Below, piece by piece: positions 17,133 to 63,549 of a DNA stretch of 64,000 nt; position 1 is the first letter of the stretch; the number at the start of each line of letters is the position of its first letter. Origin of the DNA: an uncultured virus (IMG/VR IMGVR_UViG_3300031993_000052) (Duplodnaviria; Heunggongvirae; Uroviricota; Caudoviricetes); IMG/VR virus record IMGVR_UViG_3300031993_000052, positions 1 to 64,000 of that record; one strand, given 5' to 3'. Under the pieces are notes generated by a model. It was given only the letters and a program-made list of their open reading frames with translations, was not told where the DNA came from and searched no databases. The translations under genes were made by a program, and so were the position numbers.

Positions 17133-18104
17133 ATGAGCAGTATAGAACTTTTGAAAAAGATAATCGGATTCGACAAGGATTGGTGTTACCAATACCAACG
17201 CAGGATTGACACTTTGGCACAGGACAAGGTGCGGTATGGTTGGGACGACGAGTACATTAGGAACATAAAGTTGTCCGACTTTGAGTTTATGCCTCTTGAG
17301 AGTGCCGCAGAAAAGGCGTCCGCCACAGAGTTCATAAAACGCTATGAATGGTTGGGCACGGTCGGCAGTTATCCGACACATTGGTTCGGTGCCAAATACA
17401 AAGGGATTCTCGGAGGCGTTGTCATAATGTCTATGCCGAACTCGTTCAGCACGCTGCTCGGTGAAAGGACGAGGAAAATCGAACGCCTCATATCAAGGGG
17501 CGCGAGTGCAAGTTGGACTCCGTTCAACCTCGGAAGCAAGTTCCTTATGTGGTGCATAAGATATATGGTCGACAACACCGACTACAGACTTTTCACCTGT
17601 TACAGCGACACGCAGGCGAAGGAGAAGGGTTCCATCTACCAAGCGCTTAATTTCTATTATCTCGGAAAGGACAGCGGGGCGTCTGTAAGGTGCGTAAACC
17701 CCTACAACCCGTCGAAGATAGTCACCGACAGAGCGTTCAGGGCGAGGAGTTTCTATAAGAGATATGCGAAGGACTTGGGTATTGTGTGGCAGAAGAATTG
17801 GAACAACGACCAAAGGATGCTGTGGGAGAATGTGCCCGACGACATAGAGAGAAAACTGCGAGAGTATTCAAAGGATATGTATGAGAAATCGGTGAAGTTG
17901 AAGTTTCCTCCGAAGCACAAATACGCATTTGTTCTCGGACGGGACAAACGCGAGACCAATGCCCTGCGGAGAGAGTTTCTTGAGCGCAACAAGGTGTATG
18001 AATACCCGAAGGAAAGGGTTGTGGACAATGTGGAGTTCGACAATGAATACAACGAGATTATATCAGAGAGCGACAAGTATGACAAGTCGCACAGACTGTT
18101 TTGA
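17133..18104 (+). CDS. Mom-like GNAT-fold DNA modification protein
   Basis: FI.RYEWLG...FG....GILGGVV...SRG...P.NLGSKFL...YSD....KGSIYQALNFYYLG matches the Mom-family pattern. Confidence 0.6.
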   Translation: MSSIELLKKIIGFDKDWCYQYQRRIDTLAQDKVRYGWDDEYIRNIKLSDFEFMPLESAAEKASATEFIKRYEWLGTVGSYPTHWFGAKYKGILGGVVIMSMPNSFSTLLGERTRKIERLISRGASASWTPFNLGSKFLMWCIRYMVDNTDYRLFTCYSDTQAKEKGSIYQALNFYYLGKDSGASVRCVNPYNPSKIVTDRAFRARSFYKRYAKDLGIVWQKNWNNDQRMLWENVPDDIERKLREYSKDMYEKSVKLKFPPKHKYAFVLGRDKRETNALRREFLERNKVYEYPKERVVDNVEFDNEYNEIISESDKYDKSHRLF

Positions 18105-18118
18105 AAAACAAAAGCGAT

Positions 18119-19438
18119 ATGAACAAAGACCTTGAGAAAAAAATAAGAGACAAAATAGAGGAGTTGAATGCAACCTACACCAAGTACCACAACTGGGAGC
18201 AGGGAACCAAGATTATGATTAACTCGTTCTACGGCGGACTTGGCAACCAATATATGTATTTCTTCAACCCCGACCTTGCGGAGTGCATCACGAAGCAGGG
18301 AAAGAACGCAATCCTGTATGCGGAGAGTCATATCAACGATTACTTCCTGAATGAATGGCACAAGGACGTCGAGGTTCACAAAAGACTTGGCGTCACCGTA
18401 CACTGCCCTGTGAAAAAGCAGGTGACTGTATACATTGACACCGATTCGGTGTATTCCCAACTTGAGGAGGTCATAGCGACGACCGATTGGGGGATAGGCG
18501 ACAACCCGAATTGGAAAATCACAATCAAGAAAAAGGGGGAGAAAGACCCCTATATAACCAATTTCTGCGGAAAGAAGTCGAGGGAATATGTGGAGGATTA
18601 TTTTAACGTGAGAGACGACGATGTTGAGTTTTACAACATAGAACTTGTAAGGGGTGAGGCGAAGGACTTTGCCATCAGACTCGACGACGTGTTCTTGTCT
18701 GATTATTTCAAGAGGATTTTTGACAGTTATGCCGCCGCCATAAACGGAAAGAACTATCTCAACTTCGAGTTGGAGACTTATTCCGACGCAGGCATTTGGT
18801 TGTCAAAAAAGAAATACATACAGAATGTTCGGTGGACTGACAATATGCCGAGGCACGACATTCTCGACAATTTTTCAAAAATCAAGTCGAAGGGAGTCGA
18901 GTTGATACAGGCGTCGAGTCCCGCGTTCGCAAGGGAGAAACTCGCGGAAATCGTGAAATGGATTTTCGAGCACAACGGACTTGACGGGAATATGAAGGCG
19001 TTGTCGCTTGAGTTGAAGAACATAAAGCGTGTTATGAAAGGCGCCCCGATAGATTCAATCTGTTGGAACAAGAAAGCGACGGGTTATATGGAATGGGTGC
19101 TTGACGACACGAAGGAGTTTGTTATGAAGAAAGGCGCCCCCGCCACCACCAAAGGTATCGCATATTACAACTATATGCTCTACCACTATCCGGAGTTCAA
19201 GTCACGTTTCAACCGACTGACGGAGGGTAGCAAATGCAAGTATTATTACTGCAAGGGGAAGACCTGCGACTTCTTTGCCTTTGAACCCGGCAACTATCCT
19301 ATGCCGTTTGCACCTGAAGTCGACATCGACGTGATGTTCGAGAAAATCATCCTCGCTCCGTTGAACAGAATCATAGAGGCGCTCGGTCACAGACCGTTTG
19401 ACAAAGACCTCGTTGTTATAGACTCAAAACTTTTTTAA
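18119..19438 (+). CDS. family B DNA polymerase, C-terminal subunit (motifs B and C, thumb)
   Basis: KIMINSFYGGLGN (motif B), ITKQG, YIDTDS (motif C), KKKYI, KGVELI. Confidence 0.9.
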   Translation: MNKDLEKKIRDKIEELNATYTKYHNWEQGTKIMINSFYGGLGNQYMYFFNPDLAECITKQGKNAILYAESHINDYFLNEWHKDVEVHKRLGVTVHCPVKKQVTVYIDTDSVYSQLEEVIATTDWGIGDNPNWKITIKKKGEKDPYITNFCGKKSREYVEDYFNVRDDDVEFYNIELVRGEAKDFAIRLDDVFLSDYFKRIFDSYAAAINGKNYLNFELETYSDAGIWLSKKKYIQNVRWTDNMPRHDILDNFSKIKSKGVELIQASSPAFAREKLAEIVKWIFEHNGLDGNMKALSLELKNIKRVMKGAPIDSICWNKKATGYMEWVLDDTKEFVMKKGAPATTKGIAYYNYMLYHYPEFKSRFNRLTEGSKCKYYYCKGKTCDFFAFEPGNYPMPFAPEVDIDVMFEKIILAPLNRIIEALGHRPFDKDLVVIDSKLF

Positions 19439-19440
19439 TT

Positions 19441-20979
19441 ATGCTGCTTGACTACATACAAATCGGACAAACCATAAGCGTGTCCTATTACGGAAAGGAC
19501 GGAAAGACGCATATCAAGGACATTCAAATTCCTGACGACCAATTCTTCAACTGGAAATACTGTTCCTCCCAAAACAGCAAGGAACGAGACCCGAACAGGG
19601 TGAGTTGGGATGACAAGGCGGTGAAGAAAGCGTTTATTCCGTATCAGGAAACCTATACTGACAAAACGAGCGGAAAGAAAAGGTCGAGGACTGTCAACAG
19701 TCTGTCCATTTTCAGGATTGCCGAAATCATAGACGACCTACCGAAGGACGAATATGACGAGATTTTCGAGTACAACCTTCCGCGGACATTCTTCGTCGAT
19801 ATTGAAACAGGAATCGACAACGAACTGACGGTGAAGGAGTCTGCGGTGCAGACAAGGAAACCGATAACTGTAATCGGCATAGCGACGCCTGAAAAGGACG
19901 TGATTGTGTTGAGTTCGGAAAAAGACCTTACCGCAAGGGAGAAATCGGAGATACAGTTCGATATGGACAACCACACGAAGCATTACGGGGCGAAGTTCAA
20001 CTTCAGGTTCAAGTGCTTCGGTTCCGAAGTCGCGATGCTGAAATACTTTCTTGGGAGTATGGTGTCCAAGTTCCCTATGATGACAGGTTGGAACTTCATC
20101 GACTTTGACTGGAAGTACATCATCAACCGCTCGACAAAACTCGGTATCAAAGACCCCGTGAAGTTGGCGTCCCCCATCGGGGAGGCGGTCGGGAAAGACC
20201 CGAAGTTCCCCGCACACGTCGGCGTGATTGACTATATGCAGGCGTATGCAAAGTGGGACACAAGCATACAGCAGAAGGAAAACCTGAAACTCGACCAAGC
20301 GGGAAGCGATGTTCTCGGTGTGAAGAAGGTTTCGTATGACGGCACGCTCGACGACCTGTACGAAAAGGACTTCAAGAAATATGTCTATTACAATGTGATT
20401 GACTGCGCGTTGGTCGCTATGCTGCACGACAAACTCGGTGTTTCGGCAATCGGAAACACACTGACCTATATCGCCAAATGCCCGACTATGCGTATGTTCT
20501 CCCCTGTGTCCCTTACAGAAAGCATTATGGCGAGGGACTACTATGCGCAGGGGAAGGTTCTGCCTGTCGTGGAAATGAACTCCGTGCAGCAACCCTATGA
20601 CGGGGCGTATGTGAAGAAACCCGAAGTCGGGTTCCACATCAACTGTATATGCAACGACTTCGCCTCCCTGTACCCGAATATCATCAGAGAGTTGAACTTG
20701 AGTCCCGAAACGCTTGTGGAGAAACTTCTGGAAACCGACATAGCGGGCAAGACAAGACGTCTTGAAGAAGGGTATATCGTGTCGGAGAGCGGTTGCGTGT
20801 TCAAACAAGACCCCGGTGTCTTCAGCACGCTTGTCGGTCGTGTCTACAATCAGAGAAAGTCGTACAAGAAAACCGCGGTGCAGGCGAGCATCAAGGCGAA
20901 ACTGCTCGAAGACCTTTTGAAGCGGACAGACCTGACCGACGCTGAAATAGAGTCGGAGTATGAAAAAATCATAAGTTAG
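19441..20979 (+). CDS. family B DNA polymerase, N-terminal subunit (3'-5' exonuclease + motif A)
   Basis: FVDIET (ExoI), TGWNFIDFDWKYI (ExoII), YNVID (ExoIII), DFASLYPNII (motif A); ends in the first finger helix RKSYKK. Confidence 0.9.
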   Translation: MLLDYIQIGQTISVSYYGKDGKTHIKDIQIPDDQFFNWKYCSSQNSKERDPNRVSWDDKAVKKAFIPYQETYTDKTSGKKRSRTVNSLSIFRIAEIIDDLPKDEYDEIFEYNLPRTFFVDIETGIDNELTVKESAVQTRKPITVIGIATPEKDVIVLSSEKDLTAREKSEIQFDMDNHTKHYGAKFNFRFKCFGSEVAMLKYFLGSMVSKFPMMTGWNFIDFDWKYIINRSTKLGIKDPVKLASPIGEAVGKDPKFPAHVGVIDYMQAYAKWDTSIQQKENLKLDQAGSDVLGVKKVSYDGTLDDLYEKDFKKYVYYNVIDCALVAMLHDKLGVSAIGNTLTYIAKCPTMRMFSPVSLTESIMARDYYAQGKVLPVVEMNSVQQPYDGAYVKKPEVGFHINCICNDFASLYPNIIRELNLSPETLVEKLLETDIAGKTRRLEEGYIVSESGCVFKQDPGVFSTLVGRVYNQRKSYKKTAVQASIKAKLLEDLLKRTDLTDAEIESEYEKIIS

Positions 20980-25860: not shown

Positions 25861-25869
25861 TACAATATA

Positions 25870-25940
25870 AAGGCGGTTCAGCAAACCTTTCGTTTTAAGC
25901 ATCAAACTTTTAATTTGAAATCGCTAAACAGACCGCCTTG
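25870..25940 (+). ncRNA. CAGCAAAC-scaffold RNA with Lys(UUU) anticodon stem-loop
   Basis: AAGGCGGT/ACCGCCTT outer stem, CAGCAAAC, inner TCAAA-CTTTTAA-TTTGA; homologous to 60217-60577. Confidence 0.7.
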
Positions 25941-25976
25941 TTTTTTTTTTTGAAAAACCAATAAAAACAAAGATAT

Positions 25977-55780: not shown

Positions 55781-56293
55781 CTATACCCAAGTTATCTTTT
55801 TGTATTCTCCGTCTTCGTAGTAACCGAACGAAAAGCACATCGGGGTTAGGAAAACTGGTTCTGTGATGATGTTCTTTTTGTATTTGTCCGCATACCCCTT
55901 GTTCATATATGCGATTGTGATATGGGGTTTGTAGGTCGTGAACTCCGTGTGGAGGGTGTAGTTCGCCTTTATCGCGGAGTTTGTCGTATGAAGCGCTTGG
56001 CATACCACGCCGCATTTCAGGACGTCGTAGTTGTCGTTGCTGAACACGCTCACGTCTGAAAGCATTGTCTTGTAGTCGTTGAGAGGAAGCAGGTGCTTTT
56101 TCAACTGTTCAAGGTTGACGTCGTTGTCGAGACAGGGAGCGAGCGTGACGTGCGTCTCGGTTTCAAGTCCATAGACGAACGGTGAATCTGGGTCGCTCGG
56201 TTTGTACAGTTCATAGTCCTTGATGCTGTTTTGGATTCCCTTTATGTAGTCAGGTGTTTGGAAGTCCACCATCAAAAATGCGTATTTGTCCAT
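55781..56293 (-). CDS. 2H phosphoesterase (T4 gp57B/Acb1-like)
   Basis: Two HxT motifs (THVTL, PHITIAY); 170 aa; at the 3' end of the tRNA array. Confidence 0.7.
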   Translation of the reverse strand: MDKYAFLMVDFQTPDYIKGIQNSIKDYELYKPSDPDSPFVYGLETETHVTLAPCLDNDVNLEQLKKHLLPLNDYKTMLSDVSVFSNDNYDVLKCGVVCQALHTTNSAIKANYTLHTEFTTYKPHITIAYMNKGYADKYKKNIITEPVFLTPMCFSFGYYEDGEYKKITWV

Positions 56294-57435: not shown

Positions 57436-57518
57436 TGCGGACGGTGAGAGTCGAACTCACACGGGGATACCCCCACCACCCCCTCAAGGTGGCGCGCCTG
57501 CCATTTCGCCACGTCCGC
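57436..57518 (-). tRNA. tRNA-Leu(GAG)
   Basis: CCACC-TT GAG GG-GGTGG; long variable arm. Confidence 0.93.
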
Positions 57519-57529
57519 ATAATCTCATA

Positions 57530-57696
57530 GATGCAACCAATCACTTTCCGCTTTGGCGGTGTATTCGGACTACGGGTCGATTACCTCCGACGTCCTAATT
57601 ACGTCCATTCTCTCTAACGGGCACTCGATGTCCATCAGTGAAGTTCTATTCGGGGCGTCGTCACGTTTCCCGCTACGGGTCTATATTGGTTGCATC
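57530..57696 (-). ncRNA. ~167-nt structured RNA candidate
   Basis: Perfect 12-bp closing stem GATGCAACCAAT/ATTGGTTGCATC. Confidence 0.5.
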
Positions 57697-57837
57697 CGTT
57701 TAAGAAATTCGGCAAACGAGTTTTGTATCGTCATCTTAAACTAAATGTTGACACAACCGCATCGCATTCTGCGGTCGCTTTGAAACGCCAACAATGTGCC
57801 CACAACGAAGGGTCACAAATCTTGCCGTATCCCATTG

Positions 57838-58311: not shown

Positions 58312-58424
58312 GTTTACAACCTTTACAGACCGTATGGTTACACACGGGAAGTATAACCGAACCATACGTCGGTGTGCGCTGAACCCGTATCCGCAAACGG
58401 CAGCAACCGTTCCTAATCGGACAT

Positions 58425-58810
58425 CACGGACTTTACTTTTTTATGCACCTCGCCTTTACAGCGGCACGCACACCATTTCACGCAAACCATAAAGATTGTG
58501 GACAGACTCTTTGGTGTTTATCGCTTTGTCTCCGACTTGCATCGTCGCACTTGCGGTGTGCGAGACCGTGCCTTCTTTTTTATATATGTCATCCCTTCGG
58601 GCATTGGGCAGAAAGGAAAACATAATATATTTGAGAATTTCTCTCTCACGCGCTTGCGTGGTTCCTGTCGGAATGCTCCTTTCCAATACATTGCAGGGAA
58701 CACGTCCCCGCGACCGACAGTGGTCGCCCATATATCATTTCAGGGCATTGCTCCGACAACGGGATGAAAAAGCAAGCGAATCTTATGTTCGCCAAAAAAT
58801 AAAGTCCGTG
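58425..58810 (-). ncRNA. ~385-nt large structured RNA candidate
   Basis: Closing stem CACGGACTTTA/TAAAGTCCGTG; several internal hairpins; no credible ORF. Confidence 0.55.
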
Positions 58811-58816
58811 TCGGAA

Positions 58817-58894
58817 TGGTAGCGCGGACGGGACTCGAACCCGCAATCTCCACCTTGAAAGGGTGGCGACTTAAACCAGTTTGTCCACCGCGCC
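58817..58894 (-). tRNA. tRNA-Glu(TTC), CCA encoded
   Basis: CCACC-CT TTC AA-GGTGG. Confidence 0.95.
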
Positions 58895-59125: not shown

Positions 59126-59548
59126 AAGTGATTGATGTGTTGTTACACCAAATTCTCCGACGGCGGTTTCACGGACATCTCAACGGGCGACTAACTTGGC
59201 AACTACGCCCTGCGCCGAACTTTTCTTCATAGTTCGGACACCCCCGCTTTCGCGGTGAAGATTAAGAGCAATCTCCTCTCGTACTGTCGCTCCTTATCCG
59301 TCGTACCTGTCTCCGACACCGAATTGCACTTGCGCCACATCAAGGAGACACCCGTGTTTCAACGGGATTTTAATTGAGGACAACCGTGTATTCGTGCTTG
59401 TGACTCCGTGAGGTTGCCCATACCGCACCAAGTTCGCTGGTATGGTGTTCTTGTGACGTAAATCAACTATGCGCATAGTAGTATGTAGTCACTACCTCTT
59501 GAAACTCTTTAGAGGATGGACACTATCAGTCCCACCTTTCAATCACTT
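59126..59548 (-). ncRNA. ~420-nt large structured RNA candidate
   Basis: Closing stem AAGTGATTGA/TCAATCACTT filling the Ser-His tRNA gap; many internal hairpins. Confidence 0.55.
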
Positions 59549-59637: not shown

Positions 59638-59805
59638 AAAAAAGCAAAATCTTACACAAGACGAGTTGCGCTTTAACTCTCTTGTCCTTCGCTGTGGCGA
59701 GACCACGGATTGCTCCGCACTTTTGTTGTTAAACTTCCACAGACCCCATTCTCATCGGAATCCCAAGCGGAAAAGATTTTATCCGCACCCTTTGATTTTG
59801 CTATG

Positions 59806-59949
59806 CTGTTATGGCGGGACTCGAACCCGCAGTACCGCAGTAATCCTGAACCGCGGGCAACCTTTACGTCTCACTCCCAAGACTTCTAATCTGACCGACA
59901 ATGGTGACGGTTTCAAGCGAGGGTTTGCCAATTCCCCTTCACATAACAG
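59806..59949 (-). ncRNA. tRNA-like RNA with an expanded central region
   Basis: Acceptor CTGTTATG/CATAACAG, D-like AGGG..CCCT arm, perfect T arm; ~90 nt in place of the anticodon and variable arms. Confidence 0.55.
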
Positions 59950-59968
59950 TTGTGTGTTGATGAATTTG

Positions 59969-60048
59969 TAGGGGAGGTGGGACTCGAACCCACATACACC
60001 AATTACAGAATTAACGACTGTATATAAGACAGGACTGATACACCCCTA
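59969..60048 (-). tRNA. atypical tRNA-like gene lacking a D arm, TAT loop (Ile?)
   Basis: T arm GTGGG-TTCGAGT-CCCAC; CTGT-CT TAT AT-ACAG; long variable region. Confidence 0.5.
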
Positions 60049-60135
60049 TGCGATGCCGAGAATCCCTGTCATAAATTTGCCCGCCAACGGCGGACACCCA
60101 TCAACAGATGGGGCAAGGCATTGCTTGTGAAAGAG

Positions 60136-60209
60136 TGCTCCCAGCAGGACTTGAACCTACGACCCCCTGATTATGAGTCAGGCGCACTAACCAACTGTGC
60201 TATGGGAGC
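60136..60209 (-). tRNA. tRNA with CAT anticodon (Ile2-like or Met)
   Basis: CCTGA-CT CAT AA-TCAGG. Confidence 0.9.
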
Positions 60210-60216
60210 ATAGAAA

Positions 60217-60289
60217 CAAGGCGGTTTTTTTAGCGAGTACAAATTAACGGTTTGTTGCTTGAAAATAGTGGTTTGCGGAATCCGCCTTT
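60217..60289 (-). ncRNA. scaffold RNA with Asn(GUU) anticodon stem-loop
   Basis: AAGGCGG/CCGCCTT, CCGCAAAC, ACAAA-CCGTTAA-TTTGT. Confidence 0.7.
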
Positions 60290-60329
60290 ATATGTTCAGT
60301 ATTATGGAAAAAGAGAAAATTCAAAAAAA

Positions 60330-60399
60330 CAAGGCAGGGGTTGTTAGCGAGTACAAATTAAAAGTTTGTTGCTTGGATAGGTTTGCTGCACCTGCCTTT
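60330..60399 (-). ncRNA. scaffold RNA with Lys(UUU) anticodon stem-loop
   Basis: AAGGCAGG/CCTGCCTT, CAGCAAAC, ACAAA-CTTTTAA-TTTGT. Confidence 0.7.
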
Positions 60400-60439
60400 A
60401 TTATTCAGTATTATGGAAAGAGAAGATTCAAAAAAAAAA

Positions 60440-60505
60440 CAAGGGAGATTTGTTGCGTTTCAAAGTTACAGTTTGATGCCTACAATGTTTGCTGAACCTC
60501 CCTTT
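60440..60505 (-). ncRNA. scaffold RNA with Tyr(GUA) anticodon stem-loop
   Basis: AAGGGAG/CTCCCTT, CAGCAAAC, TCAAA-CTGTAAC-TTTGA. Confidence 0.7.
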
Positions 60506-60510
60506 AGATA

Positions 60511-60577
60511 CAAGGTGATTTTTTTGCTTGGTTGAATTTGGATTTCACTTTGCAATGCGTTTGCTGCAATCACCTTT
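60511..60577 (-). ncRNA. scaffold RNA with Trp(CCA)-like loop
   Basis: AAGGTGATT/AATCACCTT, CAGCAAAC, TGAA-ATCCAAA-TTCA. Confidence 0.6.
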
Positions 60578-60589
60578 TTGTTTTAATTG

Positions 60590-60662
60590 TATCCCCGCAG
60601 GGACTCGAACCCCAATCTTGAGTTCCGTGGACTCACATTCTAATCCATTGAACTACGGGGAC
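60590..60662 (-). tRNA. tRNA-Arg(ACG)
   Basis: TGAGT-CC ACG GA-ACTCA (C33 is unusual). Confidence 0.88.
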
Positions 60663-60767
60663 TTATATGGGCGGGGTTATCGTCATACCTTACTATAGTT
60701 ATACGCCGAATATGATGTTATCCCCTGCGTAAACTTGTTCCAATGTACGGTTGGAGTTTACGTTTAG

Positions 60768-60840
60768 TGGGAAGGGGTGGAGTCGAACCACCATCATCGG
60801 ATTTTCAGTCCGCTGCATAGACCTGCTTTGCTACCTTCCC
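60768..60840 (-). tRNA. tRNA-Phe(GAA)
   Basis: CGGA-CT GAA AA-TCCG. Confidence 0.9.
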
Positions 60841-60919
60841 GTTTTGCGGATGTGTGTCTCGCGACAGGCGTCCGCAACTGATAAATATAAAAAAACACAA
60901 ATAAAATGATTATCACAAG

Positions 60920-60990
60920 AGCGGCATATCAGAATCGAACTGACATATCCAGATTGGAAGTCTGGCGCACTGCCTTTGTGCTAATGCCGC
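60920..60990 (-). tRNA. tRNA-Gly(TCC)
   Basis: CCAGA-CT TCC AA-TCTGG. Confidence 0.92.
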
Positions 60991-61082
60991 GTGAGGCGCG
61001 CGTCCGCGCCCGTACAAGAGGCGTGATGAAATGACTTATCCCAAAAGTTTTTCTTGTTTTTTGCCGAATGCCTCTTTTTTTG

Positions 61083-61196
61083 CCGCGGAGATTGGAGTCG
61101 AACCAATGTCAGGAGTTCCCAATAGCGAAAATTGCTGATAGGTTCTTTGAACAAGAATCATTTGCTACTCCCGTTCTGCCGTTAAACTACTCCGCG
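61083..61196 (-). tRNA. tRNA with ~43 extra nt in the anticodon loop (identity uncertain; Pro TGG possible)
   Basis: Acceptor CGCGGAG/CTCCGCG, D and T arms intact; stem GGAGT/ACTCC encloses ~50 nt. Confidence 0.6.
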
Positions 61197-61540
61197 ATGT
61201 TCCGACATAATGTGGTGTGAACCGCTGAAACCACAATCGCACTTTCGCTGTCGGGGCGAACTCCGCTTTGTTTCTCCGGAGCGGAAAACCATCACTGCAT
61301 TCGTTTTGATTAACAATATACAGCATCACGGTATCGCACCGTGCTCTCTCCGCAGGGTCGCGGGCGTGTCACTTGACACCTATGTTGCAGTGATTGTATG
61401 TCCTCCCGCCCGTGCCTTTGCACATTATCTGCGGATTTGTATGGACACGTTTCAAGGTTGTGCTGAAACCCGACGCCATTCTAAATGTTATTTTAAGGAA
61501 GCGTTTAACTCTCCTAAAACTATGTGCGGCATAGTCTTTG

Positions 61541-61611
61541 TTGAACTTGGAGGACTCGAACCTCCACCAACAGAACCAAAATCTGTTGTGCTGCCATTAC
61601 ACCAAAGTTCA
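61541..61611 (-). tRNA. tRNA-Gln(TTG)
   Basis: ACAGA-TT TTG GT-TCTGT. Confidence 0.93.
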
Positions 61612-61692: not shown

Positions 61693-61848
61693 TGGGCAGG
61701 GAAGGATTTGAACCTCCGAACCCGAATGGGAGCGGATTGGCAATGTGGGAAATTACGAATTTCCGAAACTTCATTATTCACATTGCGGTTTAACGTGTAA
61801 CCTTCACGTAGTACAGTCCGCCGCGTTTAACCACTTCGCTACCTGCCC
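61693..61848 (-). tRNA. tRNA-Tyr(GTA) interrupted by a 73-nt insert (61739-61811) between positions 36 and 37
   Basis: GCGGA-CT GTA [73 nt] AA-TCCGC; all other arms are canonical Tyr. Confidence 0.85.
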
Positions 61849-61860
61849 TTATAGAATTTG

Positions 61861-61931
61861 TGGACATTACGGGAATCGAACCCGCTTTCACGCCTCCCGT
61901 TGCAGTGGGACACGCTACTGCCGTTATGCCC
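61861..61931 (-). tRNA. atypical tRNA-Cys(GCA)-like
   Basis: T arm intact; TCCC-ACTGCAAC-GGGA (8-nt loop); short D arm. Confidence 0.5.
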
Positions 61932-61942
61932 TTGTTGTTATG

Positions 61943-62014
61943 TGTCACGGATGAGACTCGAACTCACAATCCCCTGATTAAAAGTCAGGTGCATCGCCAT
62001 TATGCTACCGTGGC
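61943..62014 (-). tRNA. tRNA-Lys(TTT)
   Basis: CCTGA-CT TTT AA-TCAGG. Confidence 0.93.
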
Positions 62015-62839
62015 ATTTTTTATTTTTTGTATTATATTTTTAATGAATCGTTCTTTACATTCTTTTGGCATTTTTTTATACCGAGACCATCTTATTCTAA
62101 ATAAACACGTCCATCCATTTTTTTGTAATACTTCAGTTCGTTTTTTGTCGTGTTTAACAATACGCTTGTCCAAATAATGTTGTTCCCCATCAACTTCAAA
62201 ATATGTTTTTGTTATTGGAAATGCAAAATCCAAAAAATACCCAAATTGATAATAATTTTGTTCATATTCAATATGTTCATCATTCAAAATTTGCTTAAAA
62301 TACTTTTCACAATAACTATCACCGTGTGAATGATGATTTAATACATAAGGAACTTTATTCGGGTGCTTTTTCAAATACTTTTTTCTAATATCAGAAAGGT
62401 GCTGTTTTTCTTGTTCAGTATGCTTTATTCCTTTTTGTGGACTTTTTAATTCACCGTTTTCATAACGGAGTTTAAGTGAAATTGCTGCTTGTTTAACACG
62501 CTCATCTGTCTCTTTTGTTAAACCTTTGTTCCACGGACGCTTACCCATCATACCATTACGATATACTCTATTTTTGTTTTGTGGACACTTACATTCGTGT
62601 GCTTTAAGTGATTTTACACTATAACATTGTTTTCCACAGTATTTACAAACAAGACTTTCATCTTTGTCGTAATGATAATTTTCATTACTATGTTTTTTTG
62701 AATATACCGCATAACCACAAACGTGATTTTCCAAAGGTTTTCTATTTGGATTCAACTTACAAGTTCTTTCGTGAATACCCAATGCACAAGAACGTTTTAA
62801 CATTTTGTTACAATACCTACAAATATACATCATTTCCAA
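62000..62839 (-). CDS. putative homing endonuclease (Zn fingers + NUMOD3-like + DUF559/Vsr-like) inserted in the tRNA array
   Basis: CRYC..H..C twice, PWNKGLTKETD, KHTE..K..LS..RK, LDFAF...EVDGEQH...D..R...L...GW; AT-rich; late promoter at 62850 (-). Confidence 0.75.
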   Translation of the reverse strand: MEMMYICRYCNKMLKRSCALGIHERTCKLNPNRKPLENHVCGYAVYSKKHSNENYHYDKDESLVCKYCGKQCYSVKSLKAHECKCPQNKNRVYRNGMMGKRPWNKGLTKETDERVKQAAISLKLRYENGELKSPQKGIKHTEQEKQHLSDIRKKYLKKHPNKVPYVLNHHSHGDSYCEKYFKQILNDEHIEYEQNYYQFGYFLDFAFPITKTYFEVDGEQHYLDKRIVKHDKKRTEVLQKNGWTCLFRIRWSRYKKMPKECKERFIKNIIQKIKNATVA

Positions 62840-62959: not shown

Positions 62960-62966
62960 ATGTTTA

Positions 62967-63036
62967 CAAGGTGGCATAACCATTAACCTTAAATTAAATA
63001 AATACTATGGAAACTGTTTTGCTGAAAACCACCTTT
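62967..63036 (-). ncRNA. CAGCAA-scaffold RNA with AU-rich apical part
   Basis: AAGGTGG/CCACCTT with CAGCAAAAC after the 5' strand; no clear anticodon loop. Confidence 0.5.
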
Positions 63037-63040
63037 CTTG

Positions 63041-63481: not shown

Positions 63482-63487
63482 ATTTTA

Positions 63488-63541
63488 CAAGATACTTAAA
63501 ATTTCCTATAATTTTTTTAATAGATTGCTGAATGTATCTTT
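63488..63541 (-). ncRNA. short CAGCAA-scaffold RNA
   Basis: AAGATAC/GTATCTT with ATTCAGCAAT; A-rich apical loop. Confidence 0.45.
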
Positions 63542-63549
63542 ATTTCTCG

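Follow-up and report, generated by a model that had tools for sequence, protein, structure and literature searches.

The tRNA Array and Its Non-tRNA Units

The stretch of DNA analyzed here (hereafter the window) comprises 64 kb of the 75.5-kb viral record IMGVR_UViG_3300031993_000052 (G000; CheckV completeness 26%), which derives from an uncultured member of the Caudoviricetes. Its genes include those for a T4-type major capsid protein, a tail sheath and a family-B DNA polymerase that is split, and the sequence of this phage is contained in sequencing runs labelled as bovine gut metagenome. From approximately 56.3 kb to the end of the window, the minus strand displays a tRNA array, on which ARAGORN makes 26 calls (25 tRNAs and one probably spurious tmRNA) and Rfam returns 26 tRNA matches. 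The slot between the tRNA-Arg(ACG) and tRNA-Met(CAT) genes of this array is filled by four small units (U1–U4; Table 1), which are the subject of this study and which belong to a phage RNA family that flanks genes for a predicted Ro60-like protein. An original prediction had described them as four tandem minus-strand units of a single architecture, which are not tRNAs, escape tRNA finders, display anticodon-like loops and are separated in part by two near-identical spacers; it had taken them for candidate decoys of anticodon nucleases.

The descriptive part of that prediction is borne out. In each of U1–U4, an outer stem of the form AAGG.../...CCTT, followed by GT, encloses 45–55 nt, within which there is an unpaired C(A/C)GCAAAC, an inner pairing of 2–4 bp and an apical stem of 4–5 bp closed by a 7-nt loop. 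The units have neither a D nor a T arm, and ARAGORN and Rfam make no tRNA call on 60216-60578. Compared with the loops of the array's own tRNAs, those of the units agree at 6/7 (Trp), 6/7 (Tyr), 7/7 (Lys(UUU)) and 6/7 (Asn) positions; three of the four combine a 7-nt loop with U33 and a purine at position 37, the deviant being U4 with C33. Canonical tRNAs for all four of these anticodons are present in the same array. The two spacers share an exact 13-mer (60295-60307 and 60404-60416), which recurs in the rest of the window no more often than chance would allow, and are alignable over about 40 nt. A covariance-model search added four further units to the window, three in the tRNA array and one on the opposite strand at 25868-25941 (Table 1), and a motif search returned 14 matches where 2.4 were expected. 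The folding energy of the units is unremarkable (z-scores of −2.5, −2.0 and −0.3, with U3 taken incompletely); that they exceed chance follows from the comparative evidence given below, rather than from folding energy alone.

Table 1. Units, spacers and flanking tRNA genes in the window, with their scores in the covariance models R1 and R2 (see text). The coordinates of U1–U4 include two flanking bases.
Feature	Position	Strand	Elements	Loop or payload	R1 (bits)	R2 (bits; E)
U6	25868..25941	+	Among the protein genes and on their strand, away from the tRNA array; 9-bp stem, TCAGCAAAC; T11 after the unit, next ATG 36 nt on	CUUUUAA	77.4	61
tRNA-Met(CAT)	60135..60209	−	6 nt downstream of U4			
U4	60216..60290	−	7-bp closing stem, TCCGCAAAC	CCGUUAA (Asn-GUU-like, C at position 33); payload as in U3 except for the loop	81.1	63.4; 1e-9
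Spacer U3–U4	60291..60328	−	Near-duplicate of spacer U2–U3			
U3	60329..60400	−	8-bp closing stem, GCAGCAAAC, inner AGC/GCT, apical ACAAA/TTTGT, then T7	CUUUUAA (Lys-UUU), identical to the loop of the array's tRNA-Lys	76.6	62.0
Spacer U2–U3	60401..60438	−	T-run, then a conserved stretch up to CCATAATACTGAA; possibly a terminator tail plus a promoter for the next unit			
U2	60439..60506	−	10-bp closing stem, TCAGCAAAC, apical TCAAA/TTTGA, then T10	CUGUAAC (Tyr-GUA-like)	72.6	54.7
U1	60510..60578	−	9-bp closing stem AAGGTGATT/AATCACCTT, motif GCAGCAAAC, inner TTGC/GCAA, apical TGAA/TTCA	AUCCAAA (Trp-CCA-like)	65.4	49.9; 4e-7
tRNA-Arg(ACG)	60589..60662	−	10 nt upstream of U1			
Weak unit	61014..61078	−	AAGAGGC/GCCTCTT stem, TTCGGCAAAAAAC	Loop not anticodon-like	21.7	25.1; 0.023
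U5 (weaker)	62966..63037	−	AAGGTGG/CCACCTT stem, TCAGCAAAAC, apical TTAA/TTAA; between tRNA-Asn and tRNA-Met	UUUAAGG	24.5	19.6; 0.26
Further unit	63487..63542	−	AAGATAC/GTATCTT stem, TTCAGCAATC; between tRNA-Asp and tRNA-Leu	A-rich hairpin, not anticodon-like	28	42.1; 1.2e-5

A Phage RNA Family with a Constant Handle and Variable Cargo

Two covariance models were used, namely R1, built from the units, and R2, rebuilt only from units adjoining Ro60-like genes (see below). Units of the window are found by R1/R2 at E-values of 1e-9 to 1e-16, and pattern scans, a stem-pairing filter and whole-record searches with R1 uncovered the same architecture in at least 12 other IMG/VR records. The carriers range from a 40.8-kb complete phage up to phages of 203 kb and 413 kb, and the family spans phages of proteobacteria, firmicutes and actinobacteria. 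The units constitute a widespread, undescribed family of phage RNAs; a literature search, which left two Y RNA reviews uncovered, found no description of this handle or of Y RNAs with an anticodon arm.

The constant part of these RNAs is a handle reading (T/A)AAAGR, three variable pairs, two to three bases and (A)CAGCAA(A/T/C)C, followed further on by an A-rich linker and, at the 3′ side, YCTTGT. Its closing stem covaries (e.g., AAGG/CCTT, AAGA/TCTT and TAGG/CCTA). In an alignment of 85 distinct relatives that was fitted to the model, pairing reaches 99.3% in the outer stem and 96.6% in the apical stem; compensatory changes are seen in 7/7 and 5/5 of their pairs, respectively, and at all 15 modelled pairs overall. 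A control with slid partners is paired at only 29–44%.

The cargo held by this handle takes several forms, of which a lone anticodon-like arm is the commonest. Other units join the arm to a second hairpin (e.g., a Ser-UGA loop accompanied by a stem resembling a variable arm), combine a hairpin with a Lys arm, or hold D, Val and T arms that lack an acceptor stem (46.5 bits against Rfam tRNA). Still others carry an anticodon-like arm followed by a T arm, closed stem and D arm, or a whole tRNA-Arg(ACG) that is also an ARAGORN call. Yet others are devoid of payload, and some relatives close the acceptor end into a hairpin. In one record (G009), identical handles enclose a different cargo in each of three units. 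At L127:2139-2255 (−), the tRNA-Arg(ACG) is nested in the closing stem of a unit and flanked by the 9-nt direct repeat TTAAACAGT, as if inserted there by recombination.

Anticodon-Like Loops across the Family

Of 66 distinct units retrieved at E < 0.01, 54 contain a 7-nt loop closed by a stem of 4 bp or more. These loops have C32 in 74%, U33 in 72%, A37 in 80% and A38 in 70% of the units, while the middle triplet varies (UUU in 16, GUU in 7, UGA in 5 and many singles). The combination Y32-U33-R37 is found in 33/54 units as against 1,712/14,696 (11.6%) control hairpins from the same loci, a figure that is conservative because the automatic pick sometimes took the T loop or a rival hairpin; the counts are phylogenetically non-independent. 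The pattern expected of genuine anticodon loops, with persistent flanks around a changing triplet, is thus recovered. The proposal that each unit displays a different anticodon does not carry over to the family, in which Lys-UUU dominates. Given the loop shares in this unit set and in the R2 set (see below), display of an anticodon arm is the main, though not the sole, cargo class; in this respect, the original prediction identified the principal payload and left out the whole tRNAs, the T/D-arm modules and the empty handles.

In two places, payloads that are otherwise identical differ by a swap of UU and CG at loop positions 33-34 (CUUUUAA to CCGUUAA), once in the window between U3 and U4 (loops at ~60360 and ~60247) and once in an unrelated lineage between L229:4087-4153 and L230:4087-4153. 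The recurrence of this swap favors selection acting on the loop.

Linkage to a Gene for a Ro60-Like Protein

The candidate partner of these RNAs is a protein with Pfam DUF2828 and DUF7788 (PF11443/PF25043; PHROG 850, for which the PHROGs annotation is 'RNA-binding protein'). In the 40.8-kb complete phage, three units form a small operon of their own (extended −10 promoter, units, ordinary terminator), which begins 28 nt past a 463-aa DUF2828/DUF7788 gene. We searched for PF11443 in 14 records, comprising 13 that bear units and G007, a relative without them, and found it in 11 of these, including 10 of the 13 unit-bearing records and all seven of those with at least 67% completeness. The three unit-bearing records that lack it are fragments, i.e., the record of the window, its near-identical 124-kb twin and a 15.7-kb piece. 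For 9/10 of the gene-bearing records that the RNA had led to, the Ro60-like gene has a unit on its strand at a distance of at most 500 nt.

The same linkage is recovered when loci are ascertained by the protein only (80 of at least 571 IMG/VR loci, with 2.5-kb flanks searched). At E ≤ 0.01, R1 returned 40 matches in 37 loci, 40/40 of them on the strand of the gene and 27 within 500 nt; at E ≤ 1, 92/94 matches were on the gene strand. R2 returned 124 matches at E ≤ 0.01, distributed over 60/80 loci and with 124/124 on the gene strand, and 38/80 loci contain two or more units. The opposite strand of the same DNA, taken as control, yielded 0 to 2 matches. Since R2 scores U1–U4 of the window at 49.9–63.4 bits, these belong to the family that flanks the Ro60-like gene.

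An AlphaFold model of the protein, computed from a 10-sequence alignment (predicted local distance difference test score (pLDDT) 79.5; predicted template modelling score (pTM) 0.67), predicts a Ro60 fold, with a TROVE helical-repeat ring and a vWA domain. In a Foldseek search with this model, ranks 1–10 and 12 among the matches listed are Ro60/TROVE chains (E 4e-9 to 6e-4), and the alignments span about 504–529 columns, which is the full length of the model. The best structural match is the Ro60 of Thermus phage phiLo (E 4e-9), with Deinococcus Rsr and Xenopus and human Ro60 also being recovered, and a MIDAS motif, DxSGS, is invariant in the 10 sequences. Pfam TROVE does not match the protein and vWA_Ro60 does so only at E 0.046, a phmmer search of one Ro60-like protein against the PDB gave no match, and the literature on 'DUF2828' yielded only unrelated papers on plants and tardigrades. 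Two payload-less mini units, which consist of the closing stem and a CAGCA motif (L199:881-923 in G002 and L226:2438-2475), lie 23–26 nt before the start codon of the Ro60-like gene and may be an autoregulatory site.

Relation to Known Y RNAs and to Cultured Phages

In the middle unit of the 40.8-kb phage (L176:1606-1711), the T arm, the closed stem and the D arm align to the Rfam YrlA model, with a score of 43.5 bits (E 1e-6) that falls short of the gathering score of 69; the end stems do not conform to the model. Such a T/D-arm module is shared by the relatives L247:3912-4029 and L249:4322-4415. In mycobacteriophage Tyson, the order is a gene annotated as 'Ro-like RNA binding protein', a 58-nt unit (loop AUGGUAA) and a YrlA match of 36.4 bits. 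More broadly, tblastn places the Ro60-like protein in hundreds of cultured phages (711 records), among them Felixounavirus, P100-like Listeria phages, Twort-like staphylococcal phages and mycobacteriophages. In 4/5 cultured-phage loci examined, tRNA genes are located no more than 2.5 kb from the gene, and units occupy the gaps between tRNAs: Felixounavirus humlepung has three units between annotated tRNAs, Bacillus phage Izhevsk three units, Mammaliicoccus phage PMS3 two, and Listeria phage LP-125 two weak ones 190–340 nt before the gene, with an RtcB ligase gene 1.3 kb downstream. None of these cultured-phage units overlaps an Rfam family.

Small RNAs lying among phage tRNA genes have precedents. 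The T4 stable RNAs species 1 and 2 (rnaD and rnaC) are small RNAs of unknown function in a tRNA gene cluster, and the units resemble them, by description only, as small RNAs among tRNA genes in a phage with a T4-type capsid. Phage tRNAs are further known to counter anticodon nucleases, as T5 tRNAs do against PARIS and the retron PtuAB, in part through anticodon-loop variants. The units share with these a phage-encoded RNA that presents an anticodon loop in a setting of tRNA-targeting immunity. Those tRNAs, however, are complete, chargeable and replace the cleaved ones, whereas the units lack D and T arms and an acceptor end.

The closest likeness is to the bacterial Y RNAs. YrlA is laid out as a conserved 5′ motif followed by V, T, closed-stem and D elements, and over 250 bacteria and phages encode it adjoining Ro60 (Chen et al. 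2014, PMC4201824). As so described, YrlA (RF02553) and YrlB share with the units a closing stem that joins both ends, a 5′ motif above this stem, a variable tRNA-mimicking module and the occurrence of several copies beside the Ro60 gene on its strand. On this count, the statement that no described family has this layout is not supported: the layout is of the Y RNA type, and the family is linked to a Ro60-like gene. The units nonetheless differ from YrlA/YrlB in their handle, which is (A)CAGCAA with AAGR/YCUU-GU rather than the GNCGAAN0-1G given there, in a partner of the DUF2828/DUF7788 type rather than Pfam TROVE, and in their commonest module, the anticodon arm, which is precisely what is missing from YrlA. 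U1–U4 carry only the anticodon-like arm, without T arm, closed stem or D arm; in the window's clade, the units appear dispersed over the tRNA array, at a distance from the gene, and none reaches the Rfam threshold.

Three phage systems bear on the same question. The Ro60 of Thermus phage phiLo binds two Y-like RNAs, Yrl1 and Yrl2, that are encoded upstream of it; unlike the units, these were chosen by a CGAA motif and a large internal bulge, they bind the host PNPase, and the accessible part of the report describes no anticodon-arm module for them (PMC12135203). The Ro60-like gp130 of the Felixounavirus Bas63, encoded directly upstream of tRNA genes, counters the Ppl defense system, and its loss renders the phage Ppl-sensitive; the authors of this preprint guess that some of the 'tRNAs' are Y RNAs, and the RNA partner is not identified in it (PMC11482910). 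Units of the present family differ in filling the gaps between annotated tRNAs, as in the related phage humlepung, rather than being annotated tRNAs themselves. Listeria phage CKA15, which is P100-like, has three highly transcribed unannotated regions near tRNA genes, upstream of and co-oriented with the Rsr-like CKA15_055, the product of which was detected in virions; these were proposed as possible Y RNAs and were left undefined (PMC12282133). One such region of the related LP-125 corresponds to a ROOL match rather than to a unit: a ROOL-like RNA (L291:968-1519; 87.4 bits against a curated 99.1) lies between tRNAs upstream of the Ro60-like gene and may be one of the highly transcribed regions of CKA15.

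Probable Y-RNA-Like Partners of a Phage Ro60-Like Protein

Since the family adjoins and is co-oriented with a gene of predicted Ro60 fold, and some of its members match YrlA, we favor, with moderate confidence, the view that the units are Y-RNA-like ligands of a Ro60-like protein encoded by the phage and that the anticodon arm is the module they expose. Under this model, the units would be co-transcribed with the tRNA array, on the same strand as which they lie at 6–10 nt from the tRNA ends, and would be released either through processing of the neighboring tRNAs or through start and stop signals of their own (e.g., the T-runs after U2, U3 and U6). Each would then fold into a closed rod, both stems of which display covariation. 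The base of the stem (AAGR/YCUU-GU), together with the single-stranded (A)CAGCAA, would act as a constant handle that docks on the Ro60-like ring, as suggested by the tight gene linkage and the way in which Ro60 binds Y RNAs; the earlier idea that CAGCAAAC is a binding site for a protein gains support. The apical module, which in the window is a copy of a Trp-, Tyr-, Lys- or Asn-like tRNA anticodon arm, would thereby be exposed and could engage a factor that reads anticodon loops, either tethering it to the protein or titrating it. The 2H-phosphoesterase/RNA-ligase-like gene at the edge of the array (see below), the RtcB gene of LP-125 and the Ppl phenotype of gp130 point to tRNA damage, repair or counter-defense as the likely setting.

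Extending this further, we tentatively raise a more ambitious possibility, which is rather unlikely to hold in full: that many phage lineages possess a programmable RNA-protein counter-defense platform, in which a Ro60-like ring with interchangeable anticodon-arm RNAs traps, blocks or diverts host factors by which anticodon loops are attacked or read (e.g., anticodon nucleases and other tRNA-targeting immunity), with the 33-34 variants (CUUUUAA to CCGUUAA) serving as uncleavable baits. The RNA partners of this type of Ro60-like protein have so far only been guessed at, and a candidate family with a searchable handle is now defined; its commonest cargo is the anticodon arm, the sole part of a tRNA that the known bacterial Y RNAs lack. 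In this way, the Ro60-like proteins of phages are tied, concretely and testably, to tRNA arrays and to host defense directed at tRNAs, for which a knockout phenotype exists in a model phage (Bas63 gp130/Ppl). A further consequence is that the gaps within tRNA arrays hold small RNA genes, several in each phage, that annotation overlooks.

Several observations weigh against the Y-RNA-like interpretation. Rfam, at gathering and at lenient thresholds (E ≤ 10), assigns no family to U1–U4, YrlA and YrlB included, and the Ro-binding motifs GNCGAAN0-1G and CGAA, as defined in the respective reports (PMC4201824, PMC12135203), are absent from the units. A sequence profile of the protein searched against the PDB reached Ro60 at only E 0.5–0.7, so that the homology rests on the predicted fold. 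No unit was found within 2.5 kb at 20/80 protein loci. Anticodon-like loops are not universal, with Y32-U33-R37 found in 40/88 hairpin-bearing units of the R2 set and no such hairpin in 28/116 of its units. In RNA-library contigs from four runs, the unit region has a depth of 0–4, although such libraries miss 70-nt RNAs. Finally, PF11443 was not found in the approximately 134 kb known of the window's own phage, i.e., G000 (75 kb, 26% complete) and G006 (124 kb, 39% complete), both of which are fragments, and the pairing is therefore by proxy.

As the gene is known from relatives rather than from these fragments, we infer the pairing of the window's units by kinship. The most informative relative is G002 (413 kb, CheckV 100%), whose major capsid protein shares 82% identity with that of the window. 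It has two units, as against four in the window, in the same slot between tRNA-Arg(ACG) and tRNA-Met. Its Ro60-like gene lies at 211 kb, 195 kb from the array units, and is preceded by a payload-less mini unit 23 nt upstream. G007, with a capsid protein 80% identical, also has the Ro60-like gene and is a fragment without tRNAs; tblastx of 37.6 kb of it gave no match to the window and four short ones (10–65 aa) to the remainder of the record (L005). The closest relatives of the protein, in L211 and L212, have no unit within 2.5 kb. In the clade of the window, the units seem to reside in the tRNA array and not beside the gene.

Alternative Explanations

The alternative that survives best, though we consider it unlikely, retains the Ro60-like protein and lets the Y-like RNAs merely gate or regulate it or its mRNA, with the apical hairpin as an inherited stabilizing stem. 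Gating is a known role of Y RNAs, the hybrid members have their anticodon-like hairpin 5′ of the T arm, in the position of the V-stem of YrlA, and the payload-less units shortly before the gene start are suggestive of an operator. A mere stabilizer, however, would not need C32, U33, A37 and A38 to be kept while the middle triplet varies, nor would a recurrent two-base swap in the loops of otherwise identical units be expected of it.

The free-standing decoys of the original prediction, i.e., baits or inhibitors of host anticodon nucleases or tRNA-modifying enzymes in which the Ro60-like protein has no part, appear quite unlikely. The loops are canonical anticodon loops of which Lys-UUU, Asn-GUU and Tyr-GUA are common types, and it is tRNAs of these types that PrrC/PARIS, colicin E5 and the retron PtuAB target. 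The window units duplicate anticodons that canonical tRNAs of the array already serve, and the TT-to-CG swap that recurs in two lineages falls at loop positions 33-34, which flank the cut site of PrrC. What such decoys leave unexplained is the constant handle, the strict linkage and co-orientation with the Ro60-like gene and the existence of payload-less and T/D-arm units.

It is very unlikely that the units are punctuation of the tRNA operon, with the closing stem, with or without a T-run, as a terminator, 5′/3′ cap or processing insulator and a leftover tRNA inside. T-runs do follow U2, U3, U6 and several relatives, and units are often the first element behind a TTGACA-N17-TATAAT promoter or the final one ahead of a T-run, at 1–10 nt from tRNA ends. 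Against this, a scan for intrinsic terminators (a short G+C-rich hairpin with a 3–8 nt loop and a T-run) found none in 59900-61100, a scan of the cluster for sigma-70 promoters and terminators gave nothing above shuffles, and about half of the units have no T-run (among U1–U4, only U2 and U3 do), while the phage has ordinary terminators elsewhere (the 55640 region). Punctuation would leave the single-stranded CAGCAA, the conserved loops and the Ro60-like linkage unexplained.

Decay of functionless tRNA-derived repeats is highly improbable: the loops of the weak members (63487-63542 and 61014-61078) are indeed degenerate and the spacers duplicated, but compensatory changes in all modelled pairs, the complete strand bias and conservation across phages of three bacterial divisions contradict it. 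That the units are minimal arm-less tRNAs, charged and used in translation, as their anticodon loops, 7-bp end stem and tRNA-like spacing in the array might suggest, is scarcely credible. They have no D or T arm, and their first pairs and 3′ GU do not change with the supposed 'identity'; certain relatives enclose a whole tRNA in the stem or have the acceptor end closed as a hairpin. All four anticodons are served by canonical tRNAs of the array, and U4 lacks U33. The units display no known defining feature of a self-cleaving ribozyme, an integron attC site, a CRISPR-repeat mimic, a retron non-coding RNA or type III antitoxin repeats.

Other Features of the Array and the Phage

At the edge of the tRNA array, 55781-56293 (−) encodes a 170-aa protein with two HxTx motifs, which has a weak match to the 2′-5′ RNA ligase/2H phosphoesterase superfamily (Pfam E 9e-5, below the cut-off) and to PHROG 755 'RNA ligase' (E 1e-6); its match to the anti-CBASS protein Acb1 is weaker still. 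Two tRNA genes of the array appear to be interrupted. The tRNA-Tyr(GUA) at 61693-61848 (−), which Rfam calls and ARAGORN does not, is interrupted past its anticodon by a sequence of about 80 nt, and a second tRNA-like gene, seen by eye at ~61085-61200 (−) and on which both programs are silent, has an insert of about 50 nt within the anticodon stem. A low-GC open reading frame of 279 aa inside the array (62000-62839, −) with a DUF559/restriction-endonuclease-like end looks like a homing endonuclease insertion; the ARAGORN tmRNA call at 61860-62242 overlaps it as well as a tRNA-Lys and is the one probably spurious.

The RNA-library contigs cover large gaps of the array on the minus strand (59133-59541, 58377-58825, 61012-61563, 57515-57835 and 59651-59851), with a depth of about 4490 at 59133-59541 (run X22). 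These gaps match no Rfam family and look like abundant structured RNAs of unknown kind, 200–550 nt in size. Outside the array, the family-B DNA polymerase is split over two adjacent open reading frames at 18101-20979 (+), of which the upstream one corresponds to the later part of the profile and the downstream one to the exonuclease domain and the earlier part.

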